Assembly (NCBI GenBank): GCA_963693015.1
Contig: OY843748.1
Span: forward strand, 1,024,395-1,088,394
Source: a bacterium
GTDB lineage: Bacteria > JAAXHH01
DNA length: 64,000 nucleotides
Reading direction: 5' to 3'
The notes under the pieces were generated by a model. It had not been told where the DNA came from. It saw only the letters and a list, made by a program, of their open reading frames with translations, and did no database searches. A program made the translations under genes and the position numbers. Shown here in pieces: positions 44,122 to 60,278 of the stretch (positions within the stretch are counted from its first letter, which is position 1; each line of letters opens with the position of its first letter).

Positions 44122-45324
44122 TCAAGCGTTCGGTCCGGCCGGGTCCGGCTCGAAATGGAACGTTACCCGGACGAATCTGTCGCGTTCGAAGTTTTCGAGC
44201 GTCGGCTCCGTCCCGTTGAAGTTGCGCATGGCGTGGCGCATGGCAAGCCAGCCCCTGCCGCGGCGTTCCATGAGCCCGCGCACGACCATGGCGTTCGCCA
44301 TCATCTCGTTGCGCGATCGGGGGGCGCCACCCATCTGCGCCTGTTCGACCGTCATGTGGTTCGGGAGCGCGCCAGGGCTGGTCACCACGATGCGGTCGTC
44401 GAAGACCTCCAGCATCACCTGGGAGCCGGCGATGGCGTAGTCCCGGTGAATGACCGCGTTCACCAACGCCTCGCGGAGCACGTCTTCCGGGATGAGCGGG
44501 ACGTCCTCGCGGTAGAGTCCCCTGTAAATCTCTCTTCTCCCCAGGCTGCGGAACCACCCCATGGACCGGTGAACCTGCTCGTCCAGCCGTCCACGGCCCT
44601 CGCCCGCGCTCAGAACGTCGGATGCCTGGTCGACGCCTCCGTACCTGGCGCATTGGATGAACAGGCTCGTGGCGTGCGGAAACCCCTGGGGGTCCTTGCC
44701 GAAGACCATCAGGCCGTAAAGGGTTGGGCGGAGCGTCCCGTTCAGGCGGTCGCATACCGAGGCGTTGCGCAAATCGCTCTCAACGTCAGGCTGCGGAACA
44801 TCCTCCACGCGCATGCCCTGCGCCCGCATGTACGAGCGAAACGCGTTCATTTCGATGTCGTCCGCGGTCGCGGACGCGATGACCTGCTGCTCCGTGAGGA
44901 CCAGGCCGAAGACGTTGAACAGTTCCTGCAACTCGGAAGGAGAAGGCGCCGCGGTGGCGCGGCCCCGACGGATCCAGAAGCGCCCGTCATAGCTGAACGG
45001 CTCGTATCCCCGCCGCTGGCGAGGAACGTCAACCCAGTGCACCCATCCGGCATCCGTGAGATACCGGTCGCACTCAGCGGTGACCGGCGTGCCGCAGCCG
45101 TTCTGCAGGAAGTTCGTCAGCCGTTCCTGCGCGCTTTCCGGGTCTTCCCGCGCTCCCGCTACGACGCCGGAGTTGTCTACACCGATGACGAGCAGTCCCC
45201 CGTCGCCGTTGGCGAATGCGCACAGCGTCCTGCCGAGAGAACTGAAGTCACCGAGTCCCCGCTTGAATTCCGTGTGGCTGTTCTCTCCGCTTTTGATGCG
45301 CCGCTGCACTTCCGGCCAATCCAT
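44122..45324 (-). CDS. AlbA_2 (Schlafen-like divergent AAA) plus HATPase_c_4 domain protein; putative DNA-binding or ATP-binding regulator
   Basis: 400 aa. N-terminal ENSHTEFKRGLGDFSSLGRTLCAFANGDGGLLVIGVDNSG is AlbA_2-like. The C-terminal LREALVNAVIHRDY...GRG block is RecG-C/HATPase_c_4-like. Confidence 0.7.
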   Translation of the reverse strand: MDWPEVQRRIKSGENSHTEFKRGLGDFSSLGRTLCAFANGDGGLLVIGVDNSGVVAGAREDPESAQERLTNFLQNGCGTPVTAECDRYLTDAGWVHWVDVPRQRRGYEPFSYDGRFWIRRGRATAAPSPSELQELFNVFGLVLTEQQVIASATADDIEMNAFRSYMRAQGMRVEDVPQPDVESDLRNASVCDRLNGTLRPTLYGLMVFGKDPQGFPHATSLFIQCARYGGVDQASDVLSAGEGRGRLDEQVHRSMGWFRSLGRREIYRGLYREDVPLIPEDVLREALVNAVIHRDYAIAGSQVMLEVFDDRIVVTSPGALPNHMTVEQAQMGGAPRSRNEMMANAMVVRGLMERRGRGWLAMRHAMRNFNGTEPTLENFERDRFVRVTFHFEPDPAGPNA

Positions 45325-45459
45325 GCGCGCCTCTCAATGAACGCCTCTCTAATGTACGCCTCTCAGAACCCGTTATTTTGTTGCCGCCGCCGGAAGACTT
45401 CGTCGTCGCCGTCCACGGTGTGGACCATAGCATCTCGAACGGATGCCGACTCTCTCTGT

Positions 45460-45498
45460 CAGACCGGCTCTCCGAGCTATCAGACTGGCTTGCCGAGC
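45460..45498 (+). repeat. Two 18-nt imperfect direct repeats (cagaccggctctccgagc / cagactggcttgccgagc) in a divergent promoter region
   Basis: Direct reading. It lies between the AlbA_2 gene start (45324, minus strand) and the giant HTH gene start (45872, plus strand). The intergenic region 45325-45871 is AT-rich. Confidence 0.4.
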
Positions 45499-45871
45499 GT
45501 CTGAACTCCGGCCAGCCACCGCATTTGCAATGGTAATGATAAACGTATTCGGCGGGTGCGGCAATCCATAATGGCGATCCGGATTGAGATTGCGACCTCG
45601 ACATGTATTCACTTTGATCCCGACAGTGCTGTTTTGAATAATGCGGAAAACCATGCAGGCGAGATGGACGTCGCCGTGATCACCGACCAAGGTCGAGTTC
45701 GACCTACAGATGACGCACGATTCGGATTTCGCCCCTTAACCCGGATGTGCGAAATGCAGTTAATCCTTATGTTCACGATTTTGTATTGCGTAACGATACA
45801 GAATACAGTATATTCCGGCATAACAGTAATCCATAAAGTACAGCATCTCCGATTCACAAAGGATACAAGCC

Positions 45872-48800
45872 ATGGCCCAATACGGAACCACTGAGGATAA
45901 TATCCATCCTGGAGCATATGTCAGTCGGGAGGTCATCCCGAAGGGTATGTCGGTCACTAAAGCCGCAGAACTGCTTGGAGTAGGACGACCGGCATTGTCC
46001 AACTTTCTGAACGGCAATGCGGCCCTGTCACAGGAGATGGCACTACGACTCGAACGCACCTTCGGAGCTGACCGAGAAGCCCTGCTTGATCTCCAGGCAA
46101 AGTATGATCGTCGCGACGAAGCCATTGATACACCTGTCGCCGCCGGCCGCCACGCGCCGACGCTGGTCCAGATTACAGCCCGGAGAATCGAGGAGTGGGC
46201 CGACACGATAGTCGCCAGGGAAGAATTGCCCGCGCTACTGCGACGGCTCGTCTACTCAACCGGGAACCAACTCACTCGTGTCGACTTCCCCGCCTTCGAC
46301 AACGCCCAACGGCCCGGATGGGACGGCGAGGTCGAGTTGCCGGTCCCGACGCCCTGGATACCAGCCGGCCGGTCAGGATGGGAATTCGGGTGCAGTGAAA
46401 GACCCGCAACCAAGGCAAACGCAGATTACACGAAGCGCGTCCGGGCGTTTCCTTCAGGGGAACGGCGCAAAAGGACATTTGTTTTCGTCACGCCGCGCAA
46501 CTGGCCAGGGAAAGGCAAATGGGCTGCAGAGAAAGCGGCTCAGGGGGACTGGAAAGATGTGCGCGCCTATGATGCAAGCGATCTGGAACAGTGGCTCGAA
46601 CAGTCCGCCGAGACGCAGGTATGGTTCTCCGAACGGCTCGGAGTTCCGATTGAGGGCTTCCGGTCGCCCGAAATGTGCTGGTCCGATTGGGCTAATGTTT
46701 GCGAACCAGTCCTGTCACCTTCGCTGTTCTCGTTAGCCGAAGGTTCTATCGATGACTTTAATCGGTGGTTGAGTGCGCAGCCAGAACGGAATTTCATCGT
46801 GTCCGCCGACTCCCCCGACGAGGCGCTTGCATTCGCATGCCATGTTGTACGGGAGGCGAAATCCGATGTTGGCGAGCCCGGCGCCGGTGCACTCGTATTT
46901 GACACGCCGGAGTCCATACGGCGGTTCCGCGCATCGAATACCGCCCCGCGCATAGCAATCATCCACAACGCCGTGGTCGAGAGGGAGATCGGGGATCTCT
47001 GCCGGAGTTGCCACGTCATCATCATGCGACCCGCCAATGATGTAGATGTCGACCCCGATATCCGCCTCAAGCTACCGAGTTGGCAGTACTTATCGGACGC
47101 ATTGACATCCATGGAGATAGACGAGGACAGGATCGACAGGCTCATTCGAGAATCGGGTCGGTCACCGGCCGTATTGCGCAGACGGCTATCCACAGTACCT
47201 GCAATCCGCAATCCCGCCTGGTCCGGGAACCCTCAGATTGCCCGCAAGCTGTTACCAGCAGCCTTGGTCGGCGCCTGGAGCAAAGCCTCAACGGCCGACC
47301 TTGAGGTTGTCCGAAGACTCGTCCGTACGGACGATGACAACGTCGTGGAAGACCGTGTCATGGAGTTATTGAACCTCCCGGATTCACCCCTCTGGTCTAG
47401 AGGAGATTATCGGGGTGTGGTCTCGCGCATCGATGCGCTGTTTGGCATTGCCAGATTCGTTACCGGAGAGGCACTCAATATGTTCTTTTCCGAGGCCGAA
47501 CGTGTGCTATCCGAGTCCGACCCCGCACTTGACCTGCCCGAAAACGAAAGATGGACCGCCGCGGTGCATGGCAAGGTACGCGCTTATTCGGCCGCCCTAC
47601 GACAGGGAATCCGTGAAATGCTGGTGATTCTTGCCATCCATGGGAACCACCTGTTCCGAGATCGGCTGAACGTTGATCTTGAGAACAGGGTATCCTCACT
47701 TATTCGTGATTTGTTGACTCCCCTGACGCTCGATATCCTGCTTTCGCACCAAGAAGACCTTCCAGTTTACGCCGAAGCAGCCCCCGACGGCTTTCTCAAG
47801 ATCATCGAAGACGACCTAGATAAGCCGAATCCGGTCGTGTTCGGGCTGCTGAAGCCGGTTGACGCTAGTCTATTTGAAGATTGTCCGCGAACGGGGCTTT
47901 TATGGGCACTGGAATGTCTGGCCTGGAAGCATCCTTCAAAGGTGAGCTTGATACTCGCGAAAATGACGAGGATCCGTATCGATGACAACTGGGCGCACAA
48001 GCCCCTCGACAGCCTTCAGGCGATCTATCGATTTTGGATACCGCAGACCGCAGCTACCCTCGAAGATCGGGTGCGAGGACTTAAACTACTTGCGAACCGC
48101 AATCCGGAAGTTTGCTGGCAAATCTGTGTCGCTCAGTTCGATACTGGTCCACAATCCGCAACGCCCGCTTATCGGCCGCGCTGGCGCGACGAGGCGGAAG
48201 GCTCGGGTCATGGCGTTTCGCACGCACAGATCGTCGAATTCAGGAAGAAGGTGTTCGGCCTCATCCTACAGTGGCTGAACCACGACCATCGGACGCTTGG
48301 CGATCTTGTCGAGCGGTTTCATGGCTTTACCGACGAAGACCAATCTACAATCTGGGACCTGATTGAGGCCTGGGCGGTCGCCGCAGCGGACGACGGGACC
48401 AAATCCGAACTACGCGAACGAATCCGCGAAAAAATGTTCACTCGTAGTGGTATGCGACGGCGTATGCCGGAAGAATCTCTGGCTCGAGCGCGTACGGCAT
48501 ATGACCTGCTGAAACCGCAGGATCCGGTGGATCGAAATTCCTGGCTATTCAAAGACTACTGGATCGAACCATCCGCCGATGGAATCGAAGGTGAAGACAC
48601 CGAGAACCACGAAGATATTGTTCGCCAACTTCGTAGTTCCGCCATGGGAGAGATATGGTCGGAACGTGGTTTCCAGGGGGTGGCCGCTGTCCTGGTTAAT
48701 TGCGCGGTGCCCATGGACGTTGGGGACGCCCTGAACGTCCACATCACGGATTCCGGAGCGAGAGTCTGTTTCCTGCGACAGTGCCTCTCGGTTGCCGACT

Positions 48801-49951
48801 TGGAGTCAGAGATGGACCTGTGCATTCGCGGGTTTCTCAGGTCGATTGAGGAAGAGGCTCGTGCCGAAATCCTGGCAAAGGCAGCCCAAGACTTCGCTTC
48901 GGATCACATTGCCCGACTGTACCGTTGCGCACCGTTTTGCCAGCATACCTGGCGCCTGGTCGACGCATATGACAAAGTAGTCCAGGACCGTTACTGGCAA
49001 GCGGTCATACCGGACAGGGTTCGCTTTACGGAAGAAGAAGAAGAATTATCCGAGTTTGTAGACCGCATGCTGGATGCGAAACGACCCCGTGACGCGTTTC
49101 ACTTCACGCGTTTCGACTATTCGAAGATTGAAACGTCGCAGTTGCAGCGTCTACTTCTAGGCCTCGTCGCAGTGGACGCGGTTCCAGATGAAAGTTACCA
49201 TCACCAACTAAACAGCCATGACGTCGCGGATGCGATGCGGGAACTAAGCGGTCGAGTCGGGATAGATCGATCGGAGATGGCCAAGATGGAGTTCATGTTC
49301 ATCCAGACTCTAAGTCACAGTGAATACGGGATTCCCAATTTGGAACGTTTGGTGGCCGAGTCGCCCATTGACTTTGTCCGGATCCTGGCACTGAGTTTCA
49401 GGCGTAAAGATGGTGGCCAGGATCCCCGCGAATGGGACATAGCGAACGCGGCCAACCGTGCCAAACTGGCAAGCGCGGCTTACCGAGTTCTTATGCATAT
49501 GAGTTTCATTCCCGGAACCACAGATGATGATATAGATGAAGCATACCTGTCACGGTGGATCGCGGAAGCACGACGACTCAGCGCCGAACACGGGCGCGAG
49601 GTAGCGGGTGACCACTACATAGGCCAGATCCTGGCAAGAGGTCCGGCAGACGAGAACGGCGTAAAACCCTGTCAGGCGGTCTCAGCGGCTATGGAAAAGG
49701 TCGGTTCTGAAGAAATCGCTTCCGGATTCTTAATCGGAGTCCTCAACGCACGCGGGGTGGTTTGGCGATCTCACGAGGAAGGGGGGAAGCAGGAACGTGA
49801 ACTCGCGGACATGTACCGCAACTGGGCCTCGCTACGTTCCCCAGACTTTCCCTACGTCGGAAGTATCCTGGAGAAAATCGCTGAAGACTACGACCGTCAG
49901 GCTCAAAGAGAAGACGACAGGGTGGAAATCGAACGCAGGCTGGAGCATTGA
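45872..49951 (+). CDS. Giant (1359 aa) protein: N-terminal HigA-like HTH antitoxin-type domain fused to a large uncharacterised body (central unknown domain plus long helical-repeat region)
   Basis: N-terminal HPGAYVSREVIPKGMSVTKAAELLGVGRPALSNFLNGNAALSQEMALRLERTFG matches the HigA/VapI HTH. No Walker A or nuclease motif was found in the remaining 1270 aa. The region is lower in GC than the chromosome backbone. The stop lies 58 nt before the next gene. Confidence 0.7.
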   Translation: MAQYGTTEDNIHPGAYVSREVIPKGMSVTKAAELLGVGRPALSNFLNGNAALSQEMALRLERTFGADREALLDLQAKYDRRDEAIDTPVAAGRHAPTLVQITARRIEEWADTIVAREELPALLRRLVYSTGNQLTRVDFPAFDNAQRPGWDGEVELPVPTPWIPAGRSGWEFGCSERPATKANADYTKRVRAFPSGERRKRTFVFVTPRNWPGKGKWAAEKAAQGDWKDVRAYDASDLEQWLEQSAETQVWFSERLGVPIEGFRSPEMCWSDWANVCEPVLSPSLFSLAEGSIDDFNRWLSAQPERNFIVSADSPDEALAFACHVVREAKSDVGEPGAGALVFDTPESIRRFRASNTAPRIAIIHNAVVEREIGDLCRSCHVIIMRPANDVDVDPDIRLKLPSWQYLSDALTSMEIDEDRIDRLIRESGRSPAVLRRRLSTVPAIRNPAWSGNPQIARKLLPAALVGAWSKASTADLEVVRRLVRTDDDNVVEDRVMELLNLPDSPLWSRGDYRGVVSRIDALFGIARFVTGEALNMFFSEAERVLSESDPALDLPENERWTAAVHGKVRAYSAALRQGIREMLVILAIHGNHLFRDRLNVDLENRVSSLIRDLLTPLTLDILLSHQEDLPVYAEAAPDGFLKIIEDDLDKPNPVVFGLLKPVDASLFEDCPRTGLLWALECLAWKHPSKVSLILAKMTRIRIDDNWAHKPLDSLQAIYRFWIPQTAATLEDRVRGLKLLANRNPEVCWQICVAQFDTGPQSATPAYRPRWRDEAEGSGHGVSHAQIVEFRKKVFGLILQWLNHDHRTLGDLVERFHGFTDEDQSTIWDLIEAWAVAAADDGTKSELRERIREKMFTRSGMRRRMPEESLARARTAYDLLKPQDPVDRNSWLFKDYWIEPSADGIEGEDTENHEDIVRQLRSSAMGEIWSERGFQGVAAVLVNCAVPMDVGDALNVHITDSGARVCFLRQCLSVADLESEMDLCIRGFLRSIEEEARAEILAKAAQDFASDHIARLYRCAPFCQHTWRLVDAYDKVVQDRYWQAVIPDRVRFTEEEEELSEFVDRMLDAKRPRDAFHFTRFDYSKIETSQLQRLLLGLVAVDAVPDESYHHQLNSHDVADAMRELSGRVGIDRSEMAKMEFMFIQTLSHSEYGIPNLERLVAESPIDFVRILALSFRRKDGGQDPREWDIANAANRAKLASAAYRVLMHMSFIPGTTDDDIDEAYLSRWIAEARRLSAEHGREVAGDHYIGQILARGPADENGVKPCQAVSAAMEKVGSEEIASGFLIGVLNARGVVWRSHEEGGKQERELADMYRNWASLRSPDFPYVGSILEKIAEDYDRQAQREDDRVEIERRLEH

Positions 49952-50009
49952 ACGGTTTCAAGACGTTGATACGTCAATTGGACCCGTGAACAAGAACAGG
50001 ATATTCCAC

Positions 50010-52667
50010 ATGACTAATCCTTCCGAAGCAACTGGCAGCGATTCTCACGATCAAGGCACGGGTAGTGTAGCCGATCCTCTGGCCGATATCCTCGCTTGGT
50101 CTCGGAATTGCCCTGTATGGCAACGTGACGCGCTACGACGCCTATGTATCAAGGGTAGGCTGGACGAGTCCGACACGTCAGACCTCATATCCCTCTGCAA
50201 GCACAGGGGAAAGGACGCTACTGTATTTACTGCAGAGCATATTCCCGATCCGGATGCTGCATCAGCGACGTTAAATCTAAGGACCATCCGAGGTGTAAAG
50301 AACGTAAACGCCCTGAAACCGGATGAAGTCCTCACCTTCGGAAAGAAGGAGAAGGGCCTGACCGTTGTGTACGGTGACAACGGAGCGGGTAAATCGGGAT
50401 ACGCCCGTATTCTCAAGCAAGTCTGCCGGTCGCGCGCACCTGCGAACCAAAACGGTATTCTCCCTAACATCCATGCAGAGACAGCTGGACAACAACAGGC
50501 TGTTATCGAGTACACTGCCGACGGAGAAAACAAATGCGCGAAGTGGACAGCTGATCATACCGATAACACCGCGCTCTCCGGAATCAGTATTTTTGACCGC
50601 AATACCGCCAACGTTCATGTGCAAAATGCGAACGATGTCGCCTACACGCCCATGCCGATGCGCGTGCTTGAGCAACTCGCTGAAATCTGCAAGCAGGTTA
50701 GTCAACGTATCAAACAGGACATCCAAGAACTTGAACAGTTGACCCCGGCAATCATCCGGCGACCGCAGTGCCATGACGACACGGCGGTCGGCAAGCTGAT
50801 CGCCAGACTCGGCGAACAAACGAAGGTACAGGAAGTTCGCGCTCTCGCGACTTTAAACGATGCTGAGAAAGCTCGGATGGCAACGCTCCAGGGTGATATA
50901 GGGACCGATCCCCACAATAAAGCACGCCAGGTCAGGGCGCTGAGGGATCGTCTAGATGCGTTCAGTACGAAGTTCGAGGCATTGCAGAAAGCTGTTGACG
51001 ATGAACAGGTCGTCCACCTTATGGCCTTGAATAAGGTATATCAAACCGCGCGGACGGCAGCCGAGGCCGCTGCCGGAGATCTCTTCGCCGACGAGCCGTT
51101 GCCCGATATCGGCACCGATGTGTGGCGCACGCTTTGGGACGCGGCCCGGCACTACTCAGAGGAACGGGTTTACCCGGACGAGTCATTTCCGTTCACGGGC
51201 GACGACGCTCGGTGTGTACTGTGTCAGCAAGAATTGAACGACGATGCGGCCGACCGGTTTAAACGCTTTGAGGATTTTGTTAAAGACGACACGAAGCGGA
51301 AGGAAAACATGGCCGGTGAAGAGTACCGAGCCGCGCTTGACGAGATCGTCCGTGCTGATATTACCATCGCAGATATTCAGGCCACGATCGCTCTGATCCG
51401 CGACGAGTTGAATGACGATGAACTGGCTGAAACCGCAGGTCGGGCAGCGGTGACGCTGAAATGGCGAATACGTGCGATCCGCCGTAACCATAGGCTCGGG
51501 AACCAGGCCGCCCTTCCCACAGCCGCGACCTGGCCTGCCGATGCCGTCGCCGTTCACACCACCAACCTGTCGGATCGAATACGAGTTTTGCTCGCAGAGA
51601 ACGAGTCCGAGGAACGCAGGCGGATGCGCACCGAGTTCGCGGAACTGAAGGACCGCGAATGGCTGGCAACGATACAGAACGATATCATTGCGGAGATAGA
51701 CCGCCGAAAGAGGCGGGCTATGCTCAAGGAGACCCTCAAGGATACGACGACAAATCGGATCACGACCAAGAGCGGGGAAATTGCCGAGCGGCTTGTAACG
51801 AATGCCTTGCGCGAGCGGTTTACAGATGAGATCGCCAAATTGGACCTTAGAGCACTAAAGATAGAACTTCGTAAGGGACAGGCGAACTACGGTATACCGC
51901 GCTTCAAGGTCAGCCTGATCGGAAAACCTGATGCGCCGCTCGGCGAGGTCCTGAGCGAGGGTGAGCACCGTTGCGTCGCGCTGGCAGCGTTTCTCGCAGA
52001 ACTGGCCACTACGGAAAGCCGGTCGGCGATCGTGTTCGACGACCCCGTTTCGTCGCTTGATCACATGCACCGCAAATCGGTAGCATACAGGTTGGCCGAA
52101 GAAGGCAAATCTCGGCAGGTTATAGTCTTTACGCACGATATCGCATTCCTGTTCCTGCTCGATCAGGCATGCCGCGAAAAGGGTGCGCTTATTGCCTTCC
52201 GAAGTGTGTCACGCAACGACGACTACGCGGGACTCGTTCAACAGGACCCGCCAGTGCGCGCCCAGTCGCTCGACAAGGTGATCGACGGGTTGCAGAAGCA
52301 GTTCGACAACGAGAAATACTTCTACGAGAGCGGCGAACATAACCAATGGGAGCGAACCGTGGACGGGTTGCAAAAACGCTTGCGTGTTACATGGGAACGA
52401 GCCGTCGAGGAGGCTCTCAGCCCGGTATTCAAGCGCCTTTCCGATAAGGTGGACACCACAGGACTGGCGAAGGTCACTGTATTGAAGATAGATGACTGCA
52501 ACAAGATGCGCGAAGCTTACGGTCGCTGTTCGCCCTTACTGCACAGTGCGCCGGATGCTCTTAACCGACCAATTCCACCGCCTGGAGCCGTGCAGGCAGA
52601 GATCACCACATTGCGAACGTGGGTTGCAGACATAAGGCAACGCCAAGGCGAGATCGACCGGATGTAG
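50010..52667 (+). CDS. RloC-like AAA_13 family Rad50/SMC-type ATPase with coiled-coil zinc hook
   Basis: The start MTNPSEATG at 50010 is preferred; the track start at 49797 overlaps the upstream gene. Walker A VVYGDNGAGKSGYARI. Coiled-coil middle region with CVLCQQEL (a CxxC hook). ABC signature LSEGEHRCVALAAFLAEL, Walker B IVFDDPVSSLD, H-loop VIVFTHD, and a roughly 180 aa C-terminal tail. Confidence 0.7.
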   Translation: MTNPSEATGSDSHDQGTGSVADPLADILAWSRNCPVWQRDALRRLCIKGRLDESDTSDLISLCKHRGKDATVFTAEHIPDPDAASATLNLRTIRGVKNVNALKPDEVLTFGKKEKGLTVVYGDNGAGKSGYARILKQVCRSRAPANQNGILPNIHAETAGQQQAVIEYTADGENKCAKWTADHTDNTALSGISIFDRNTANVHVQNANDVAYTPMPMRVLEQLAEICKQVSQRIKQDIQELEQLTPAIIRRPQCHDDTAVGKLIARLGEQTKVQEVRALATLNDAEKARMATLQGDIGTDPHNKARQVRALRDRLDAFSTKFEALQKAVDDEQVVHLMALNKVYQTARTAAEAAAGDLFADEPLPDIGTDVWRTLWDAARHYSEERVYPDESFPFTGDDARCVLCQQELNDDAADRFKRFEDFVKDDTKRKENMAGEEYRAALDEIVRADITIADIQATIALIRDELNDDELAETAGRAAVTLKWRIRAIRRNHRLGNQAALPTAATWPADAVAVHTTNLSDRIRVLLAENESEERRRMRTEFAELKDREWLATIQNDIIAEIDRRKRRAMLKETLKDTTTNRITTKSGEIAERLVTNALRERFTDEIAKLDLRALKIELRKGQANYGIPRFKVSLIGKPDAPLGEVLSEGEHRCVALAAFLAELATTESRSAIVFDDPVSSLDHMHRKSVAYRLAEEGKSRQVIVFTHDIAFLFLLDQACREKGALIAFRSVSRNDDYAGLVQQDPPVRAQSLDKVIDGLQKQFDNEKYFYESGEHNQWERTVDGLQKRLRVTWERAVEEALSPVFKRLSDKVDTTGLAKVTVLKIDDCNKMREAYGRCSPLLHSAPDALNRPIPPPGAVQAEITTLRTWVADIRQRQGEIDRM

Positions 52668-52842
52668 TAACGCCGAACCGGTGGTGCTCAGTTTGCGCCA
52701 TTACCTCATTGTCGGGTTTCGCTTGAAGTTTTGACCCAATTCCTGCGGGGTTGTCCAGAGTTTAGACCGCAGATTGAGCGTCACGCAAATTACGGATTTA
52801 ACCGGTGCTGGGCGGCATCGTTATGTATCCGGAGGACCGCGA

Positions 52843-53730
52843 ATGGCGAATACGATCATCTACAAGGAAACGCATGAGATCATAAACTGGTTGGACACTG
52901 CGTTGAAGATGGAATGGCAGAAATACGCAGCTACCCCGGTGAGGTCAGACGTAGACCCGGAGCATATGGTAGCCCAGGGTTGGGGATACGTTATTGCAGG
53001 ATACTCACTGATTGAACAAGGCCTCAAGGCAGTGCTGCACTTACGCGGCGTCGAACCGCCGAAGACGCATGTGTTAAGCGATCTGCACACCAGATTACCT
53101 TCAGGGGATCAGGACGTATTAAGAACATACTACGACGACTTCCGCTATACTTTCCCTGGTATGCGTGCGTTCCCACTGGCATCGTTCGACAAGTATCTGG
53201 TGAATCTGGACGGTGTAAAGAACAGCCAAGATCGATACTTCGGTGCGACTGATTGGCGTTACTTCCTGACCGAGGAAAAAAGTGGAGCGTCGATGCCGCT
53301 GGTAAGCGTCAACGTAATGCATGAGGTCGCGTTCGGTTGCGTAATGATAGTTGAGTCAATCTACAAGGACGAGGATCTGACGGAGAGGTACACATACAGT
53401 TGGCGGCTTCAAAGGGAAAGATCGAAACTGTTATCAATCTGGTTTTCGAACCGCATTAACTCGCTTGGATGGGGGCAGGAAGGCGACCGGATCGAGATAC
53501 TTTGGGGGCCGGACTACAATGATCGGTACGACTATCTAGCGTTCAAAGACGATCGACACCAGTGGTTCTTTGCGCCGCTTCCAAACGCGGAGGAAACCAA
53601 GCTTTCGATGATAGACAAGCGGCAAGAACTGAAATCATTCGACCTCGAGAAAGGGTTCTGGAACCATGGTACCGCTAGTGGTATGCCGGAGAGGCGTCAT
53701 GAATCCGAGCCACGTCACATCATGTATTAG
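52843..53730 (+). CDS. Hypothetical protein (296 aa), island cargo of unknown function
   Basis: Start MANTIIYKETHEI at 52843 with GGAGGA 7 nt upstream. No motif recognised. It lies between the RloC-like ATPase and the Type ISP gene. Confidence 0.5.
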   Translation: MANTIIYKETHEIINWLDTALKMEWQKYAATPVRSDVDPEHMVAQGWGYVIAGYSLIEQGLKAVLHLRGVEPPKTHVLSDLHTRLPSGDQDVLRTYYDDFRYTFPGMRAFPLASFDKYLVNLDGVKNSQDRYFGATDWRYFLTEEKSGASMPLVSVNVMHEVAFGCVMIVESIYKDEDLTERYTYSWRLQRERSKLLSIWFSNRINSLGWGQEGDRIEILWGPDYNDRYDYLAFKDDRHQWFFAPLPNAEETKLSMIDKRQELKSFDLEKGFWNHGTASGMPERRHESEPRHIMY

Positions 53731-53886
53731 CCGATGGTTGTTGCTCTGCTGGAGACCGTGGTAGATTGTAACGTCTGGATATACTGCCACTCGGGTACCA
53801 GCTATCAAGCACAAGGTGATAATCGCTTCGGGCGGTCTGGGCTAGCTGGTAGCTACGTCGACTATCGCCGGAATACCATCTCCATC

Positions 53887-56800
53887 TCACTCCGCACCAC
53901 GCTCGTTGGAAATGGTCGGCTCGCGGCTCATTCGGGCTCTCCAGTCTCTGATCGTCTCGATAGCGATCCCCGTCGTCTGAGTTGCGGCCTGGTCAAGACA
54001 CTCCCGCACTTCGTCATCTGTGGCATACTTCCACGGCTTGACCGGCATGTGCCTGACGTGTTCATATGCTTCGGCGAGAGTAGCAGGACTTGTCGCCTTG
54101 AAATCCGGAACGGGTAGTGTGGCCAGTTCAGCTTGAGAAAAAGAGGGGTTTGACAAGGTTGACCCTCGTTTCATTAGAAATCCAAGTGCTCCGAGCGTGC
54201 TGTTACACCATGCACACAGTGCTTTCGCCTCACTGAGACTGATTGTCTTGTCTTGGATAGGAACCCACATCGACCCGACAGTCGGTGCGTTGCTCAAAAT
54301 TGAAAGCAACCTTCCAGACTGTGTATTGAACCTTGCCGCGAGTAGGACATGTCCAGCCTGTTTACGGTAACGAGCGGCAAGGGCAGGCTTCTTATCAGCG
54401 ACAGCCTGCTCCGGGACTGCCTCCATGGTGGTCCGTAGATCCTTCGACCGACCCCAGAACACGCGGTAGCCGTCACCACCTTCTCCATCGTCGACCGGAC
54501 TAAACGCATCGCGAATCCTCCGACCGGCAGGTCCGAGCAGGGATCGTTGGCCAAGCGGCACGAGTCCGTGTTCTTTTTCGAGTTGCATCGCAGCGTCAAC
54601 AAGTACCGGATCCAGAAACTGGCACGGGCGCCAATCGCCGTCCCTGATGCGCACCTCAGGCTGTTCGTAAACGGTAATCCACTTCCCTGCGTCGTCCGCC
54701 TCTATGGCTTCGACCACCTCAATGGCCTCCGCAGTATTCGAAGGCATGACGCGCAACGAAATGAAACGGGTGGGCTGCCTATCGCCATCCTCGGGCCTGC
54801 TTCCATCACGCCTGCAAACAAGCAGCGACTCGTGTATGGCGGTGTTCTCGCTGAAATTGGGTCTTCGCGGATCATGGCTTGTAACGACGGTCTCGACGTG
54901 GAATCTCTCGGCAAGGTATTTCCGTTCCGCCAGACCGCCGGAACCAGTACAAGCCGTGGTGGGGATTACCTTGGCAAGCGTTCCTCCCCGTGCCCCACGT
55001 ATCAGCATGTCGGCGAGGGGGGTAAAGTAGGTACTGAGGCTATTGGCCGTGACGACGCCTTTCGCCCCCTGATCTCTGCGTTCCAGAAATTTCTGTATAC
55101 CGAGTTCATGGCGTTGCATCGCCTTCCGGCCGTCCTCGCCGTACTTCCTGCTTCTGTTCTCGTTCGCGGTAAAAGGGGCATTCATGATGACAACATCGAG
55201 GTTGCGCAAACGGAATCGGAACATATCACTTTCAATAACTTGGGAGGGATCTATTGCATTAACCTGAGCCGCTTCAAGGGTTGAGAGTGAACGCACCGGC
55301 ACGATCATAGCACGCAGATCTCGGGCGTCATCCGCAGTGCTTAAAACCTCTAGTGATCCAGCCTTCGTAGTCCCGTCACTCTGTGGTCCGTGAGGCATAG
55401 TGAACAAGTTCATGCGCGCGTAGTCGACTGTAGGTGCACCGAGAGTCATATTGCAGGCGGCGAGTTGAATTCCATGCTGATTTATGTCTAGACCGCAAAG
55501 CACGTCTTCAACGAGTCGACGGTGCAGACGATTACGAGCTTCACCATTTAATTCTTGGCTACCTTCACAGCGGTCTTTGATTGTTTTCAGGGTCGCCATG
55601 AGCAGCGTCCCCGTTCCGCACGCCGGATCCATGATTCTAAGGTTTGCAACCGCTTCAGAGTCATTCCAGTCGATGAAACTCTCACTTAGTGCCATGCGTG
55701 CCAGCATGACCGCCGAAAGGTTGTTCGTGTAGAATGCACCGTCACTTTTAGCTGAACCGAGAATTCGGTGGTAAAGTGGCCCCGCATGATCATGGCCAAG
55801 ATCGCTCAGTGAGTCGGCAACACGGTTCGCACACTCGGCAACGACACGAATCGCGTTATCGACCGCAGTTCCTTCACGTAGCGCACCGAGTACAGCCAGA
55901 GCAGGTCGGAAAACCGGAGCATAATCCTTTTCTAAGATCGCCTCCCATGCGATTTGAAGTACCTCTCTTGGGTTGCTCGAACCTGCAACTCTGTCGAGGC
56001 GCAATATAGTCTTCATCTCCGGTTCGTCCCGAAGCCTGCGCTGGAGTAGGCAGGCGTTGCAGAGCATGAGTGCCGCGATCGTGCAGATCCCCTTGGCACC
56101 ACCATCGTCTTCGGGCACCAAGTCAAGCGCTTCTGCGAGCGGACCTTCCATGCCTTCTTCCTGGAGTACCCTACTAGCATGTAAAACTGCATCGACGATT
56201 TCATCAGCCACGACTTGACCCGGTCTACCAAGCCCTGAAGCTGCCGCAACCTGCGCATAAATCCCCTGTTCAGCTTCCTTTAAATCGAGTCTCTGCTGGA
56301 TATTTCCTGGTTGTGTTTCACGAACCACGCCGGGAGGTTTGGTTGTTCCGTTAGACGTACTTTGTTCGTAAACTTTTACGAAAGTAGCCGGGGATTCGGC
56401 CAAACGTCCATCATGGGCTTGTAGTGCACGGAGAACGCGTCCGACCGTCTGATATCCCTCGGTTCCTCGCTCAAGTGCCGCCGCGACATCACTTCCGGGT
56501 TCCACGATTACTGGTACAATAATGTATCCGAAACGCTTACCTGGCGCTTTCCTCATGACCCGCCCAACGGCCTGAACTACATCAATCTGACTGTCTCTCG
56601 GATCGAGGAATGCAACTGCGTCCAACTGAGGTACGTCGACGCCTTCAGTGAAAAGTTTTACGTTGCAGACTAATCTGCACTCATCTTCTCGATTTACCTG
56701 AGCGAGCGCTCTAAGCTCCAGATTGCGTTGGAGTGCACTATTGGACGCATCCAGGTGATTGGCGATTACCTTCATTGCACGTCCATCTTTCATTCGCCTT

Positions 56801-58320
56801 GTAGTTGCTCTGAGTACTTCGCTTTCCATGAGCGCGCCTGCATACCACTTCGATCGCGCAATGCTGTTCGCAAACGCCATGGTGCGAGGAAGCTTTCCCG
56901 GTTGCTCAAGGACTGTGCCTTCAGTGACCCCGTTCACCGCAAGAGATACGCCCAGAACCCGAGTCATTTCGTTCGTCGTTGGAGTGTTCTTTTGCTTCGA
57001 AGTAGTTTCCAGAATTTCGAGCCTTCGACGGAGCCCGGGGGTTACACTCGCGCTACTCACGCCCAGAACAATGACGCGGTAATCCGAAAGCATACCGTGC
57101 TCAACAGCCTCGGCAAACGGGAGGTGGTGGAACAGCGGTCCATAGACGTGGTGATCGTTCATGTCGACGACTTCGACGCCTTGCTCAGCGAGTTTTCGTT
57201 TTGAACGTTGGGTGTATATTCGCGGTGTTGCGGTCATGTAGAGTCTTTTTCGGGCTCGCAGCCGCTCCTCATCGTGAAACTCTTGAAAGTCGACCTTTCG
57301 GAATCCGTTCGATTTTCGCTCACCTAGAAGTGCTCCAGTCGTCCGGTGGGCTTCATCAGCGATCGCCAGATCAAACATCGGAGCGTTGTGTGTTTCCTGC
57401 GCCTCAGTGACACGTCCCAGTGAGTGATAAGTACAGAACACGACGCTAGTTGGACCTGCACCGGTAAGCGCAGCGGCGATCTTGGCCGGATCCGTTGTAA
57501 CCGGACACTCCAGCTCAGAAATCCGGATATCTTCATTTTCGTTACGCCCACCTGCGGTCGGATCGGAGCAAACGACAATACACTCAAGCTTACGCGTTGT
57601 CTGCCGTAGCCATTCACGCCGGGCTTGAGAGACCAGTGCGATAGTCGGTGCCGCAAAAAGTATCCGCTGGCCGTCTTCAACAACCTGCTCTGCGATACGA
57701 AGTGAGGTGAATGTCTTGCCTGTACCACAAGCCATTACGAGCCGACCACGGTCGTGGTTGGATAATCCATTAACAGTATCTTCAATTGCCTCTACCTGAA
57801 GCGGCCAGGGATCCTGTATAGGTCGCTCGGTGTCCTGTTCTTCGACCTGAATATTGAGGTACTCGCGGAAATCAACCTGCGTAACTTGGGGATTAGCGTT
57901 CTGGATAGCATTTTCCGCATTTGGACCCCACCGGCATGTGGCAACTATCCACCGTAGCTGGTAAATCTCCTGCTGAGATCCTCCGAGAAACTTGTCGATC
58001 TCGCCCTTTCCTAAAGTATGACCTTCCTCATAACATTTGCACTGGATGGCAACCCATTCTCCAGTGGTTCGCCGTGCAACTAAGTCGATTCCTATATCGC
58101 GACCATCAAGTCCGGTCAACGCTTCGCGCTCCGGCCAATCTGGCCAACGCCATATTTCGTCTATTTCGAATTCGGCCTGTTGCAGCGCAATGCGCATGAA
58201 CAACTGCTCGAACCAGCGTCCCTTTTCGGATTCGTCACGGCTTTCTGAACGAATGCGTTTGAGGATCTCGCCAGCACTCGGCCGACCGCCTAAATCGAGA
58301 TTGATCTGGACGTTTGTCAT
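53887..58320 (-). CDS. Single-polypeptide Type ISP-like restriction-modification enzyme: Mrr-type PD-(D/E)xK nuclease + SF2 helicase-like motor + gamma-class N6-adenine methyltransferase + C-terminal target-recognition region
   Basis: About 1477 aa. Nuclease GIDLVARR...VAIQCKCYEE (D...QxK). Motor motifs ACGTGKTFT (I), IADEAHRTTG (DEAH, II), YMTATPRI (III) and QAVGRVMR (VI). Methyltransferase motif I IMDPACGTGTLLMA and motif IV VIMNAPF (an NPPF variant). The start at 58320 (MTNVQ) or 58356 is uncertain. Confidence 0.65.
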   Translation of the reverse strand: MTNVQINLDLGGRPSAGEILKRIRSESRDESEKGRWFEQLFMRIALQQAEFEIDEIWRWPDWPEREALTGLDGRDIGIDLVARRTTGEWVAIQCKCYEEGHTLGKGEIDKFLGGSQQEIYQLRWIVATCRWGPNAENAIQNANPQVTQVDFREYLNIQVEEQDTERPIQDPWPLQVEAIEDTVNGLSNHDRGRLVMACGTGKTFTSLRIAEQVVEDGQRILFAAPTIALVSQARREWLRQTTRKLECIVVCSDPTAGGRNENEDIRISELECPVTTDPAKIAAALTGAGPTSVVFCTYHSLGRVTEAQETHNAPMFDLAIADEAHRTTGALLGERKSNGFRKVDFQEFHDEERLRARKRLYMTATPRIYTQRSKRKLAEQGVEVVDMNDHHVYGPLFHHLPFAEAVEHGMLSDYRVIVLGVSSASVTPGLRRRLEILETTSKQKNTPTTNEMTRVLGVSLAVNGVTEGTVLEQPGKLPRTMAFANSIARSKWYAGALMESEVLRATTRRMKDGRAMKVIANHLDASNSALQRNLELRALAQVNREDECRLVCNVKLFTEGVDVPQLDAVAFLDPRDSQIDVVQAVGRVMRKAPGKRFGYIIVPVIVEPGSDVAAALERGTEGYQTVGRVLRALQAHDGRLAESPATFVKVYEQSTSNGTTKPPGVVRETQPGNIQQRLDLKEAEQGIYAQVAAASGLGRPGQVVADEIVDAVLHASRVLQEEGMEGPLAEALDLVPEDDGGAKGICTIAALMLCNACLLQRRLRDEPEMKTILRLDRVAGSSNPREVLQIAWEAILEKDYAPVFRPALAVLGALREGTAVDNAIRVVAECANRVADSLSDLGHDHAGPLYHRILGSAKSDGAFYTNNLSAVMLARMALSESFIDWNDSEAVANLRIMDPACGTGTLLMATLKTIKDRCEGSQELNGEARNRLHRRLVEDVLCGLDINQHGIQLAACNMTLGAPTVDYARMNLFTMPHGPQSDGTTKAGSLEVLSTADDARDLRAMIVPVRSLSTLEAAQVNAIDPSQVIESDMFRFRLRNLDVVIMNAPFTANENRSRKYGEDGRKAMQRHELGIQKFLERRDQGAKGVVTANSLSTYFTPLADMLIRGARGGTLAKVIPTTACTGSGGLAERKYLAERFHVETVVTSHDPRRPNFSENTAIHESLLVCRRDGSRPEDGDRQPTRFISLRVMPSNTAEAIEVVEAIEADDAGKWITVYEQPEVRIRDGDWRPCQFLDPVLVDAAMQLEKEHGLVPLGQRSLLGPAGRRIRDAFSPVDDGEGGDGYRVFWGRSKDLRTTMEAVPEQAVADKKPALAARYRKQAGHVLLAARFNTQSGRLLSILSNAPTVGSMWVPIQDKTISLSEAKALCAWCNSTLGALGFLMKRGSTLSNPSFSQAELATLPVPDFKATSPATLAEAYEHVRHMPVKPWKYATDDEVRECLDQAATQTTGIAIETIRDWRARMSREPTISNERGAE

Positions 58321-58494
58321 GGGATTGACCTTGAACAAGGTAGTACCGGGAACCACCCGGAACGGGGTGGAACGCTTCTGTCAACACGCGATTCCACAAT
58401 CAACTCTTGTTCAGTTGAGATCGGCAAAGGCGCAGATCACGAATTAGGAAGGTTGACGATCAGACGGTCAAAGCCAAGATGGTCCACTACCTTC

Positions 58495-58863
58495 TCACCC
58501 ATGTTGACTCGCCGATGTTTGATCCAAGTCAGTTGGGATTACCGATTCAAGCAAACGAATCAGTTCTGGCAAATCGTCCTCGACCGTCTTCCAGACTGTA
58601 TCGAGATTAATGTCGAAATAGGCATGTACGAGTCGATTGCGCATTCCGATGATCCGCTGCCACGGCATCTCTGACAAACGGCTACGCGTGGGTTCTGATA
58701 TCTGCGTCGCCGCCTCGCCAACAATCTCGATATCCTTGATTAACGCGAGGACGAGTTGGCGATCGTTGTCCAGGTCACTACGCGCATGTCCCTGAACGAA
58801 GGAAACTGCTTCCCGCGCGGCGTCCAACATGTGCCGTAAACGGATTTCGTCATCCCTGCTCAT
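58495..58863 (-). CDS. hepT: HepT (HEPN/DUF86) toxin
   Basis: 122 aa. The Rx4HxY motif in [14 protein letters not shown] is diagnostic of DUF86 HEPN ribonucleases. It overlaps the upstream MntA gene by 14 nt. Confidence 0.8.
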
Positions 58864-59155
58864 ACTGAACCTCCGCAGTGTCGATGACCTCCTGGCGGAA
58901 GTAACGACTCAAATCCTCCGGAGTTCGCAGGTCCACCTCCCGACCGCCAAACAATTCGGATAGCTCAATCTCCAATCCGGCCATGCCCAGCAGACCGGGA
59001 GTGTGGCCTGGTGCGAACTCGACCAGTACGTCGATATCGCTCTCCGGGCCAAAATCCGTCCGCAACGCCGATCCGAAAATGGCAAATCGCCGTATACCGT
59101 GATTTTGACAAAAAGCTGCCAATTTAGTTTTTGGGATCGACCACTGTGCGTTCAT
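58850..59155 (-). CDS. mntA: MntA nucleotidyltransferase antitoxin (minimal NTase)
   Basis: 101 aa. [21 protein letters not shown] carries the GS...DxD NTase motif. The classic mntA-hepT order with overlap is present. Confidence 0.8.
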
Positions 59156-59961
59156 GGCTGCAAAACCCGGTCTGCGTCAATGTCGAAGCCAGCGGCTTTC
59201 AATTCCCGGGCGAGTGCCATCTTCCATGCGCCCAGTTCGTCAAGGACGATATAGACAACCCCCTCGAAGTCAGAAGGAGTTTCGATGTCATGCGCCCTCA
59301 GAGCACATACCTTTTCGCGACCCAACTTCCCGATGAAGAATCCGAGTTCGAGAATCACGTTCTGACGGGCTCGGGGCTTTAAATTACCCTGATCCTCCTC
59401 GGCCGCGCCGATGTCGTCGGGCGTCAGCAGAACCACGGCGAAACCCGCATCCGCATGGTCCTCGAATTTCTCGATGATCGTACGGCCTCTATTTGCCTGC
59501 TCGTGCAGGATAATCGGTTCGAGTTCCAGCCTTGACAGGAATCTTGCAACCGCGTCCCTGGCACGCTCATCGTGACCATGAACGACAAAGACTTTCTTTG
59601 TCGCCGATCCCTTATCGTCACGGCCCGTATCTGGTGCTTTAAAATCACCCTGATCTGAGGGTTGTTTCACCGTTTCTGCTTCATCTTCCCAAAAGTACTT
59701 GATCTCATCGAGACCTGACGCGACATGGGAAACCATGGTTCTCAGGTATTCACGAAAACCACTGAGGGTCTTATTGTGAGTTTTTGGAAGTAGTGTAAAC
59801 TGAGAGCTTTCCTCACCAAATATGTTGGTAAAAGCGGTATAAACGTCACGTATCCATTTTTGGACTTCCGGAGAGCTTTCATCCTCCATATCCAGCTCCG
59901 AAGCCTCATCTACCAAACTCTGTAATCGTTCAATTGCAATTGACTTTCGGACTGTCGTCAT
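59152..59961 (-). CDS. TIR-like (COG4271/DUF1863-type) nucleotide-binding domain protein with an N-terminal helical domain
   Basis: The preferred start [13 protein letters not shown] at 59961 has GGAG 9 nt upstream. The C-terminal block [64 protein letters not shown] matches my recollection of the bacterial TIR-like consensus. The stop overlaps the mntA start (ATGA). Confidence 0.55.
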
Positions 59962-60278
59962 CGCGTCAACTCCATGATCCTCATATAATCGAGCTTTCCG
60001 ATCGACGTTATACTGCCCCGCACGGACCGAGTTTACCCGGCGCAGTAAAACCAGAATCACCAGCTTGTAGACAGAAAAGCATTTCTTGACGCAGTGTCGT
60101 ACGCTCCTTGTCGTAAAAGATACATGTGCGCTAAATGGGGTCAACTCAGTTTCTGGGATACGTCAAATCCTACAATCGCGTGCTATTGCACTGTGTCGTC
60201 GACACCGTAATGTTCTTGGAAGTTATGCTTTTCCGATCGACAGCGCAGCCTCCGTAAGTCCGTCAGTTTTCAAGTCCG

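Follow-up and report, generated by a model that had tools for sequence, protein, structure and literature searches.

A TIR-like gene overlapping an mntA-hepT toxin-antitoxin pair: a recurrent cassette found mostly in predicted type III restriction-modification operons

A stretch of 64,000 nucleotides (nt) from a bacterial genome (GTDB lineage Bacteria; JAAXHH01), hereafter called the window, was analysed; it corresponds to positions 1,024,395 to 1,088,394 on the forward strand of contig OY843748.1 in NCBI GenBank assembly GCA_963693015.1. At 58495-59961 it carries three overlapping genes on the minus strand, which encode a TIR-like protein, the antitoxin MntA and the toxin HepT. The same trio was found at the same relative positions in bacteria of seven phyla, mostly within predicted operons for type III restriction-modification (R-M). 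We propose, with a probability of roughly one half, that the trio is a recurrent, mobile and facultative cassette of two self-sufficient abortive-infection modules that are co-expressed.

Recurrence of the trio was examined in the 80 closest TIR-like loci, taken as one genome per species, at 41-74% identity and from many phyla, mostly as metagenome-assembled genomes (MAGs); these loci are referred to below by L numbers. By detection with iterative hidden Markov models (HMMs), 26 of the 80 loci were found to carry an MntA gene directly 3' of the TIR-like gene and in the same orientation, 20 of them with intact HepT. These loci, 795 kb in all, contain six MntA genes that are not adjacent to the TIR-like gene; at that density about 0.08 adjacent cases would be expected, a figure that serves as an indication and not as a p-value, and the enrichment of TIR-adjacent MntA over this local background is about 300-fold. 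These counts argue against a chance juxtaposition with a standard MntA-HepT pair, which the initial annotation of the window had considered, and indicate that gene order and translational coupling are conserved in other genomes. The distance from TIR stop to mntA start was −4 nt in eight loci, +2 nt in seven and 41-48 nt in six, being +20 nt or less in 18 of the 26, and the overlap between mntA and hepT in relatives was 14 or 11 nt. The trio-bearing genomes are from Gemmatimonadota, Alpha- and Gammaproteobacteria, Entotheonellaceae, Nitrospirota, Binatia, Spirochaetia and Chloroflexota, and the closest named relatives are Gemmatimonadota MAGs. At least three lineages of MntA occupy the TIR-adjacent position, one of them nested among stand-alone MntAs. 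A more sensitive scan added two loci with remnants (28/80), leaving 52 of the 80 without any trace of a toxin-antitoxin (TA) pair. With two thirds of the closest relatives free of TA, and with the independent decay of parts described below, the trio is not a fixed three-gene system.

The TIR-like gene (59152-59961, minus strand) encodes 269 amino acids (aa) from the ATG at 59961, mntA (58850-59155, minus strand) encodes a minimal nucleotidyltransferase antitoxin of type VII TA of 101 aa, and hepT (58495-58863, minus strand) encodes a HEPN RNase toxin of 122 aa. Both overlaps described in the initial annotation are present in the sequence: the TGA stop of the TIR-like gene and the ATG of mntA share the ATGA at 59152-59155 (TCAT on the plus strand), and mntA and hepT share 14 nt at 58850-58863, as read from open reading frame (ORF) coordinates and sequence. 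By sequence reading, GGAG is located 8 nt 5' of the TIR-like ATG and GGAGG (58870-58874) 6 nt 5' of the hepT ATG. As no Shine-Dalgarno-like motif was detected in the sequence 5' of the mntA ATG, translation of mntA probably relies on the overlap with the TIR-like stop, that is, on translational coupling with the TIR-like gene. A scan of the minus strand detected no terminator-like site at the junctions within the trio or in the stretch from hepT to the R-M gene that follows it. The sole promoter match 5' of the TIR-like gene is a weak sigma-70-like one, TTGACC-16-TATCTT, at 60117-60144 (minus strand). The start of the TIR-like protein deserves comment. The mechanical ORF reaches back to a TTG at 60144 (330 aa), and the public gene call (P0001, 245 aa) begins at Met25, skipping the stretch 59889-59961. 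As Met1 at 59961 is the alignment start for 112 homologues and as GGAG precedes this ATG, the public start is probably wrong and the public protein too short. An origin of the trio as integron cassettes was set aside, since the overlapping genes leave no room for attC sites.

The TIR-like nature of the first protein, as assigned in the initial annotation, was confirmed by PF10137 (CAP12/Pycsar TIR; 136.8 bits against a cutoff of 24.7, E 4e-40, residues 123-241) in Pfam, by a full-length match to the PADLOC candidate family PDC-S35 (model PDLC05005, E 5e-83, residues 7-266, profile of 264 positions), and by the best fold matches in Foldseek, which were the Cap12 TIR-STING filaments 7un8 and 9lmq (E 6e-5). 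Sequence searches of PDB with the profile of 112 homologues returned only Cap12 (9lmq, E 3e-9; 7un8) and PycTIR (8jsj, E 1e-4). All the 25 residues that are invariant in the 112-sequence family alignment are kept. The Cap12/PycTIR-type TIR domain covers residues 120-269 (59155-59604, minus strand), with the conserved motifs [21 protein letters not shown] and [14 protein letters not shown]. The catalytic residue of TIR NADases is a conserved glutamate. In the present protein, the invariant Glu205 (codon at 59347-59349, minus strand), part of [11 protein letters not shown], lines up with the glutamate in the NVVFEFG motif of Cap12 and is the putative catalytic glutamate of an NADase; the glutamate motif NVxxExG is shared with Cap12 and PycTIR. 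By analogy with Cap12, of the cyclic-oligonucleotide-based anti-phage signalling system (CBASS), and with PycTIR, of the pyrimidine cyclase system for anti-phage resistance (Pycsar), the likely mechanism would be NAD+ hydrolysis activated by oligomerisation. Unlike these effectors, the window protein carries no STING, cyclic nucleotide monophosphate (cNMP)-binding or other known nucleotide-sensor domain, PF10137 being the only domain found, and no cyclase gene is located nearby, the neighbours being a cupin gene and mntA.

The N-terminus also differs from Cap12 and PycTIR, being a three-helix bundle of 95 aa (residues 1-95; 59677-59961, minus strand) that has no known relatives and varies among homologues. 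In the AlphaFold model its helices are at residues 6-20, 31-48, 53-56 and 66-90, with a predicted local distance difference test score (pLDDT) of 78-95, the value for the whole model being 79. No Pfam family and no significant fold match (best Foldseek E 0.64) were detected for this putative sensor or oligomerisation domain. It is joined to the TIR domain by an acidic and polar linker (residues 96-119; 59605-59676, minus strand), which is probably disordered as judged from a pLDDT below 50 for residues 95-119. The initial annotation had described an uncharacterised helical domain of roughly 150 aa; its helical nature and the lack of a family hold, and the length is corrected to about 95 aa plus the linker. 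Two further roles were considered for the protein and rejected. As a degenerate HEPN partner of MntA, the N-terminal domain gave hhalign probabilities of 0.4% against the HepT alignment and 1.7% against MntA. As a transcriptional regulator of a tripartite TA, the protein showed no helix-turn-helix (HTH) or other DNA-binding family.

The assignment of the two downstream genes to HepT/MntA stands on both families and motifs. MntA matches PF01909 (E 1e-10) and PF18765 in Pfam and PDC-S09 (E 8e-24) in PADLOC, and no DNA-binding domain was found in its 101 aa; HepT matches PF01934 (E 3e-25). GSX10DXD and RX4HXY have been defined as the hallmarks of the type VII pair that works by AMPylation (Yao et al., PMC7641770). 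The former adenylyltransferase motif is present at residues 28-42 of MntA (59030-59074, minus strand; [15 protein letters not shown]) and is kept in 25 of 27 related MntA sequences. The latter is present at residues 75-82 of HepT (58618-58641, minus strand; RNRLVHAY), includes the Arg and His of the RNase together with Tyr82, the predicted AMPylation site, and is kept in 19 of 22 HepT sequences from related loci. As in the type VII TA of Shewanella oneidensis (SO_3166/SO_3165; PMC7641770), the antitoxin gene comes first, the two genes overlap and the two proteins co-evolve tightly. The window pair differs from that TA in that neither a promoter nor a regulator of its own is obvious, the pair being coupled instead to the upstream TIR-like gene, and in that most of its relatives lie inside a type III R-M operon. 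It also falls under the NCBIfam equivalog cutoff of 60 bits, with partial matches of 37.8 bits for HepT (NF047751) and 36.1 bits for MntA (NF047752). These scores mark the pair as a divergent subfamily, and its membership in type VII TA rests for this reason on Pfam and the motifs.

In relatives the trio has a usual setting. In L254, of which the TIR protein is 59% identical to that of the window, the genes are ordered N6_N4 methylase, TIR, MntA, HepT and ResIII, with every junction overlapping. When the 80 loci were scanned with HMMs built from the L254 Mod and Res, a Mod ORF whose end meets the start of the TIR gene (TGATG or TAATG) was found in 21 of the 26 MntA-bearing loci compared with 8 of the other 54 (Fisher p 1e-8), and Res directly after the cassette in 15 of 26 compared with 4 of 54 (Fisher p 2e-6). 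Pfam and PADLOC identified N6_N4_Mtase/MTase_III (E 5e-145) and ResIII in five loci, and the five-gene order and strand, with overlaps of 1-14 nt, are conserved across relatives. Judged from these frequencies and gene arrangements, the predominant form is a predicted five-gene operon, mod-TIR-mntA-hepT-res. The initial annotation had proposed recurrence of the trio as a check, and the trio does recur, but this flanking by mod and res, which tells the most about the context, had been missed. The window trio is a free copy, outside any type III R-M operon; a degraded mod or res beside it was sought by tblastn and HMM searches, and no homologue or remnant was detected. Altogether the trio occupies at least three unrelated contexts, namely the type III R-M operon, metabolic genes (L255) and the cupin/FtsX site of the window clade, and its presence in the latter two indicates that it moves as a unit. 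Embedding in R-M operons has a precedent in PrrC and in other HEPN genes (PMC3710099). As in PrrC-EcoprrI, a HEPN RNase gene is placed inside an R-M operon, with a proposed role as a reserve once restriction has been overcome. In contrast, PrrC is a fusion of ABC ATPase and HEPN restrained by a type Ic enzyme, whereas the HEPN toxin here has its own AMPylating antitoxin plus a TIR effector, and the host system is of type III, or a single-chain enzyme in the window.

As to the dependence of the parts on each other, single genes were found to decay while others persist. Relatives at the chromosomal site of the window cover every state of decay. All three genes are intact in L001, and all three are under purifying selection. 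HepT is lost or inactivated beside an intact TIR gene in at least nine relatives (L003, L005, L043, L020, L030, L034, L257, L256 and L008): an in-frame stop is present in HepT of L003/L004, HepT is cut to 27 codons in L005/L043, and in L257 HepT is degraded and the MntA DXD is changed to DXN, the TIR gene being kept. Conversely, L253 carries an internal deletion of the TIR gene (residues 38-171 gone) and intact MntA and HepT. These decay states indicate that none of the three genes is needed for the other two to be kept, and such natural knock-outs in close relatives, of HepT, of the TIR gene or of both TA genes, suggest which dependencies do not exist. In the three Nitrospirales loci L020, L030 and L034, TIR and MntA are present without HepT, with mntA located at about 3-390 nt after the TIR stop. 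The orphan MntA of these three loci has a C-terminal extension of about 25 residues. It is still under purifying selection, which a simple model of TA decay does not explain.

Co-evolution was analysed with pairwise identities. The correlation between MntA and HepT was high (r 0.86), while that of the TIR protein with MntA or HepT was r 0.31-0.38 at full length and 0.38-0.44 for the TIR domain (p <=0.0004); the N-terminal domain showed no correlation with MntA/HepT once close relatives were excluded. Between L024 and L051 the nucleotide identity is 33-48% in the N-terminal domain, 80-87% in the TIR domain and 90-96% in mntA-hepT, with the recombination breakpoint in the linker (residues 96-119). 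This profile indicates that recombination swaps the N-terminal domain and keeps the TIR domain and the TA together. In a reverse search, 80 metagenome loci were collected in which MntA shares 50-69% identity with that of the window; HepT followed it in 70, and of the 58 loci with sufficient sequence 5' of the pair none had a TIR gene there. This MntA-HepT subfamily is thus mostly found without a TIR gene.

Based on these findings, and by analogy with Cap12 and PycTIR, the cassette may operate as follows. An infection cue would be sensed through the N-terminal domain and lead to oligomerisation of the TIR domains, which would then hydrolyse NAD+ using Glu205. MntA would spend ATP to oligo-AMPylate Tyr82 of HepT, so that the RNase is held inactive. 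Because mntA has neither a ribosome-binding site nor a DNA-binding domain in its product and starts inside the TIR stop, fresh MntA would be made only during transcription and translation of the TIR gene. Shut-off of host expression by phage, or collapse of ATP after NAD+ depletion, would then free HepT to cut RNA, since synthesis of MntA is probably coupled to TIR translation and neutralisation should need ATP. HepT would thus be the fail-safe of the cassette. Inside R-M operons the cassette is probably a second line of defence once restriction fails, as proposed for PrrC-EcoprrI. In this account the gene structure, the domain and motif assignments, the recurrence, the placement in R-M operons and the separate decay of the parts are observations; the NADase activity, the trigger, any cross-talk of the modules and the anti-phage function are inferred.

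Several points weigh against the proposal of two self-sufficient modules in one mobile cassette. The tight and repeatedly re-created junction between TIR and mntA could reflect a closer mechanistic tie than that between two autonomous modules, and the orphan MntA beside a TIR gene is still constrained without a HepT in cis (dN/dS 0.25-0.30). The sample of 80 loci comprises those most similar to the query and not a random sample of the family, and the enrichment statistics treat as independent loci that share ancestry and come in many cases from similar symbiont communities. The promoter scan gave 2 sites compared with 1.4 expected, the match thus being no better than chance. PDC-S35 itself is one of 145 PADLOC candidates, nominated through 'guilt by embedding' in R-M, BREX (bacteriophage exclusion) or DISARM (defence island system associated with restriction-modification) operons (bioRxiv 10.1101/2024.01.29.577857).

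Some of these points lead to a different explanation, namely that the TIR NADase and the MntA/HepT switch are wired together as an integrated immune system of three components, or of five with mod and res. The wiring might take several routes: MntA could AMPylate or otherwise regulate the TIR-like protein, TIR-driven loss of NAD+ and ATP could trigger HepT, or the R-M complex could restrain both until an anti-restriction protein arrives. Such wiring would agree with the conserved order, strand and overlaps of 1-14 nt through five genes, with the transfer of the trio as a unit into unrelated contexts, and with the recruitment of three MntA lineages to one slot. The co-inheritance of TIR domain, mntA and hepT under exchange of the N-terminal domain, the correlation of TIR-domain identity with MntA and HepT identity, and the purifying selection on the orphan MntA are also in its favour, and for a related system in which MNT and HEPN are fused, the ATP level has been discussed as one of the signals that control activation of HEPN (PMC13000451). 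However, losses of single components are tolerated, both as TIR gene without HepT and as TA without TIR gene; of the closest TIR homologues two thirds have no TA, nor has any of the plasmid and viral homologues sampled; a TIR partner is absent from all 58 related MntA-HepT pairs; and MntA and HepT follow each other far more tightly than either follows the TIR protein. An integrated system is, on this balance, rather doubtful. In its most far-reaching version, the trio, and in most relatives all of mod-TIR-mntA-hepT-res, would be one multi-layer immune system of a new kind that connects the ATP-dependent AMPylation switch of MntA/HepT with the NAD+-consuming TIR effector and the R-M enzyme, and in which restriction failure or TIR-driven nucleotide collapse frees the RNase, or MntA directly modifies the TIR protein; this version appears unlikely.

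The association could alternatively be a matter of hitch-hiking only, permissive R-M and defence slots in these TA-rich symbiont genomes collecting unrelated selfish cassettes, and the TIR gene and MntA-HepT being passed on and transferred jointly after one ancestral insertion, with no functional benefit of the pairing. HEPN/MNT pairs have been described as the most abundant TA and cluster with R-M operons (PMC7641770; PMC3710099), and in the present sample additional MntA-HepT copies were found near six of the 80 loci, HepT decay is frequent and the TIR-MntA association is largely limited to Mod-flanked loci. We nevertheless regard this explanation as improbable, given the enrichment of about 300-fold over local background and the identical position, strand and coupling in 26 species of seven phyla. 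A single frozen accident is also at variance with three or more MntA lineages, two types of mntA/hepT overlap (−14 and −11 nt) and junctions of −4, +2 and about +45 nt, and hitch-hiking leaves the persistence of the trio as a unit outside R-M operons and the purifying selection on all three genes to be accounted for. A CBASS- or Pycsar-like pair, in which the Pol-beta-fold MntA, like cGAS/DncV-like nucleotidyltransferases (CD-NTases), makes a nucleotide signal that activates a Cap12-type TIR with HepT being dispensable, is highly improbable: the type of TIR domain, the synthesis of 3'-5' oligo-AMP chains by MntA (PMC7641770) and the presence of TIR with constrained MntA but without HepT in three Nitrospirales species and Gemmatimonadota relatives fit such a pair, but the TIR-like protein has no known nucleotide sensor and scores 28-38 bits with the NCBIfam Cap12 models against a cutoff of 450, MntA is only 101 aa long and keeps the HepT-specific motif, most TIR homologues have no MntA, and L257 retains its TIR gene despite the change of DXD to DXN in MntA. 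The recurrent, facultative cassette of two co-expressed modules remains our preferred interpretation.

The TIR-like family is much wider than the cassette, with at least 8000 clusters. In the GTDB loci without TA, the genes 3' of the TIR-like gene are varied and encode IrrE peptidase, Res, AAA_15, AbiEi, PIN, integrase and WYL proteins; in L050 an integrase ORF overlaps the 3' end of the TIR-like gene. Carriage of the trio by viruses was examined in IMG/VR, in which 80 loci with the TIR domain included none with MntA or HepT; in a phage collection, five TIR matches were obtained, all partial. Carriage by plasmids was likewise rejected, with TA in none of the eight inspected plasmid contexts of TIR homologues. 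PLSDB contains 1165 plasmid records with a related PF10137-type TIR domain (617 from Klebsiella and 368 from Escherichia), among which only 14 cover 80% or more of the query and many listed matches are to the TIR domain alone (about residues 117-269); NCBI names these homologues 'nucleotide-binding protein'. On plasmids of B. pseudomallei (L166, 2872-4712) and P. avellanae (L171, 2054-3894), the TIR-like gene overlaps a tyrosine recombinase gene 3' by 4 nt, while the plasmid homologues of P. aeruginosa and Blastomonas come after an HTH gene and a 95-aa ORF. These varied plasmid neighbours indicate that the PF10137 family has several alternative operon partners.

In the window, the trio is located at the edge of a defence island, a low-GC stretch at about 45.0-60.3 kb with a GC content of 0.52-0.58 compared with 0.64-0.68 in the flanks. 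A gene for a single-chain R-M enzyme (53887-58356, minus strand; 1489 aa; Mrr_cat_2, ResIII/DEAD helicase and N6_Mtase; PADLOC REase_MTase_IIG, E 3e-160) begins 139 nt 3' of hepT on the same strand and is possibly co-transcribed with the trio. It is missing beside the trio in L001 and L253 and present in L257. Further away, three co-oriented genes on the plus strand (45872-53730) encode a 1359-aa protein with an N-terminal HTH_3 as its sole match, a 956-aa PDC-S06 ATPase (AAA_13/SMC_N) and a 318-aa ORF for which no family match was obtained. The listed ORFs of the HTH protein and the ATPase share 155 nt, and PADLOC matches the ATPase from residue 95 onwards, so that the true start of the ATPase is probably later than listed. 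This set, which may be a multi-gene defence system, also adjoins the trio in L001/L002, the third ORF being 295 aa in L001. Also counted to the island is a 400-aa protein with Schlafen/AlbA_2 and HATPase_c_4 domains, encoded at 44122-45324 (minus strand), which matches the PADLOC pAgo (E 7e-17) and the Argonaute-associated Aga_SIR2 models; its gene is kept beside the trio in L253. In L253, which shares about 92% nt identity, a block of about 13 kb (45336-58512) with the HTH protein, the PDC-S06 ATPase, the 318-aa ORF and the single-chain R-M enzyme is missing, and the Schlafen/AlbA_2 gene comes straight after hepT. With gene content differing in this way among L253, L001 and L257, the site resembles a defence hotspot whose genes turn over rapidly.

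The initial annotation had not recognised the arrangement TIR-like-MntA-HepT as a described system, and our literature search (PDC-S35, COG4271, TIR with HepT/MntA, and R-M-embedded HEPN/NTase) agrees, as it yielded no account of either the trio or the five-gene operon. Already catalogued are the type VII TA, PDC-S35 and PDC-S09, and HEPN genes in R-M operons have been published. The genes for PDC-S35 and PDC-S09 are R-M-embedded in relatives of the window trio, as in the discovery of these candidates; the difference is that they are listed there as separate single-gene candidates, whereas here they form one overlapping cassette with HepT, and that the window copy stands outside a type III system. 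The intact and compact three-gene locus of about 1.7 kb is suited to a first experimental test of PDC-S35, and mod-TIR-mntA-hepT-res could enter defence-annotation tools as a multi-gene entry. For the role and natural trigger of HepT/MntA, the recurrent operon with a candidate NADase and R-M provides a concrete and testable setting. The cassette is thus a compact link among the most abundant TA family, putative NAD+-depleting immunity and restriction-modification.

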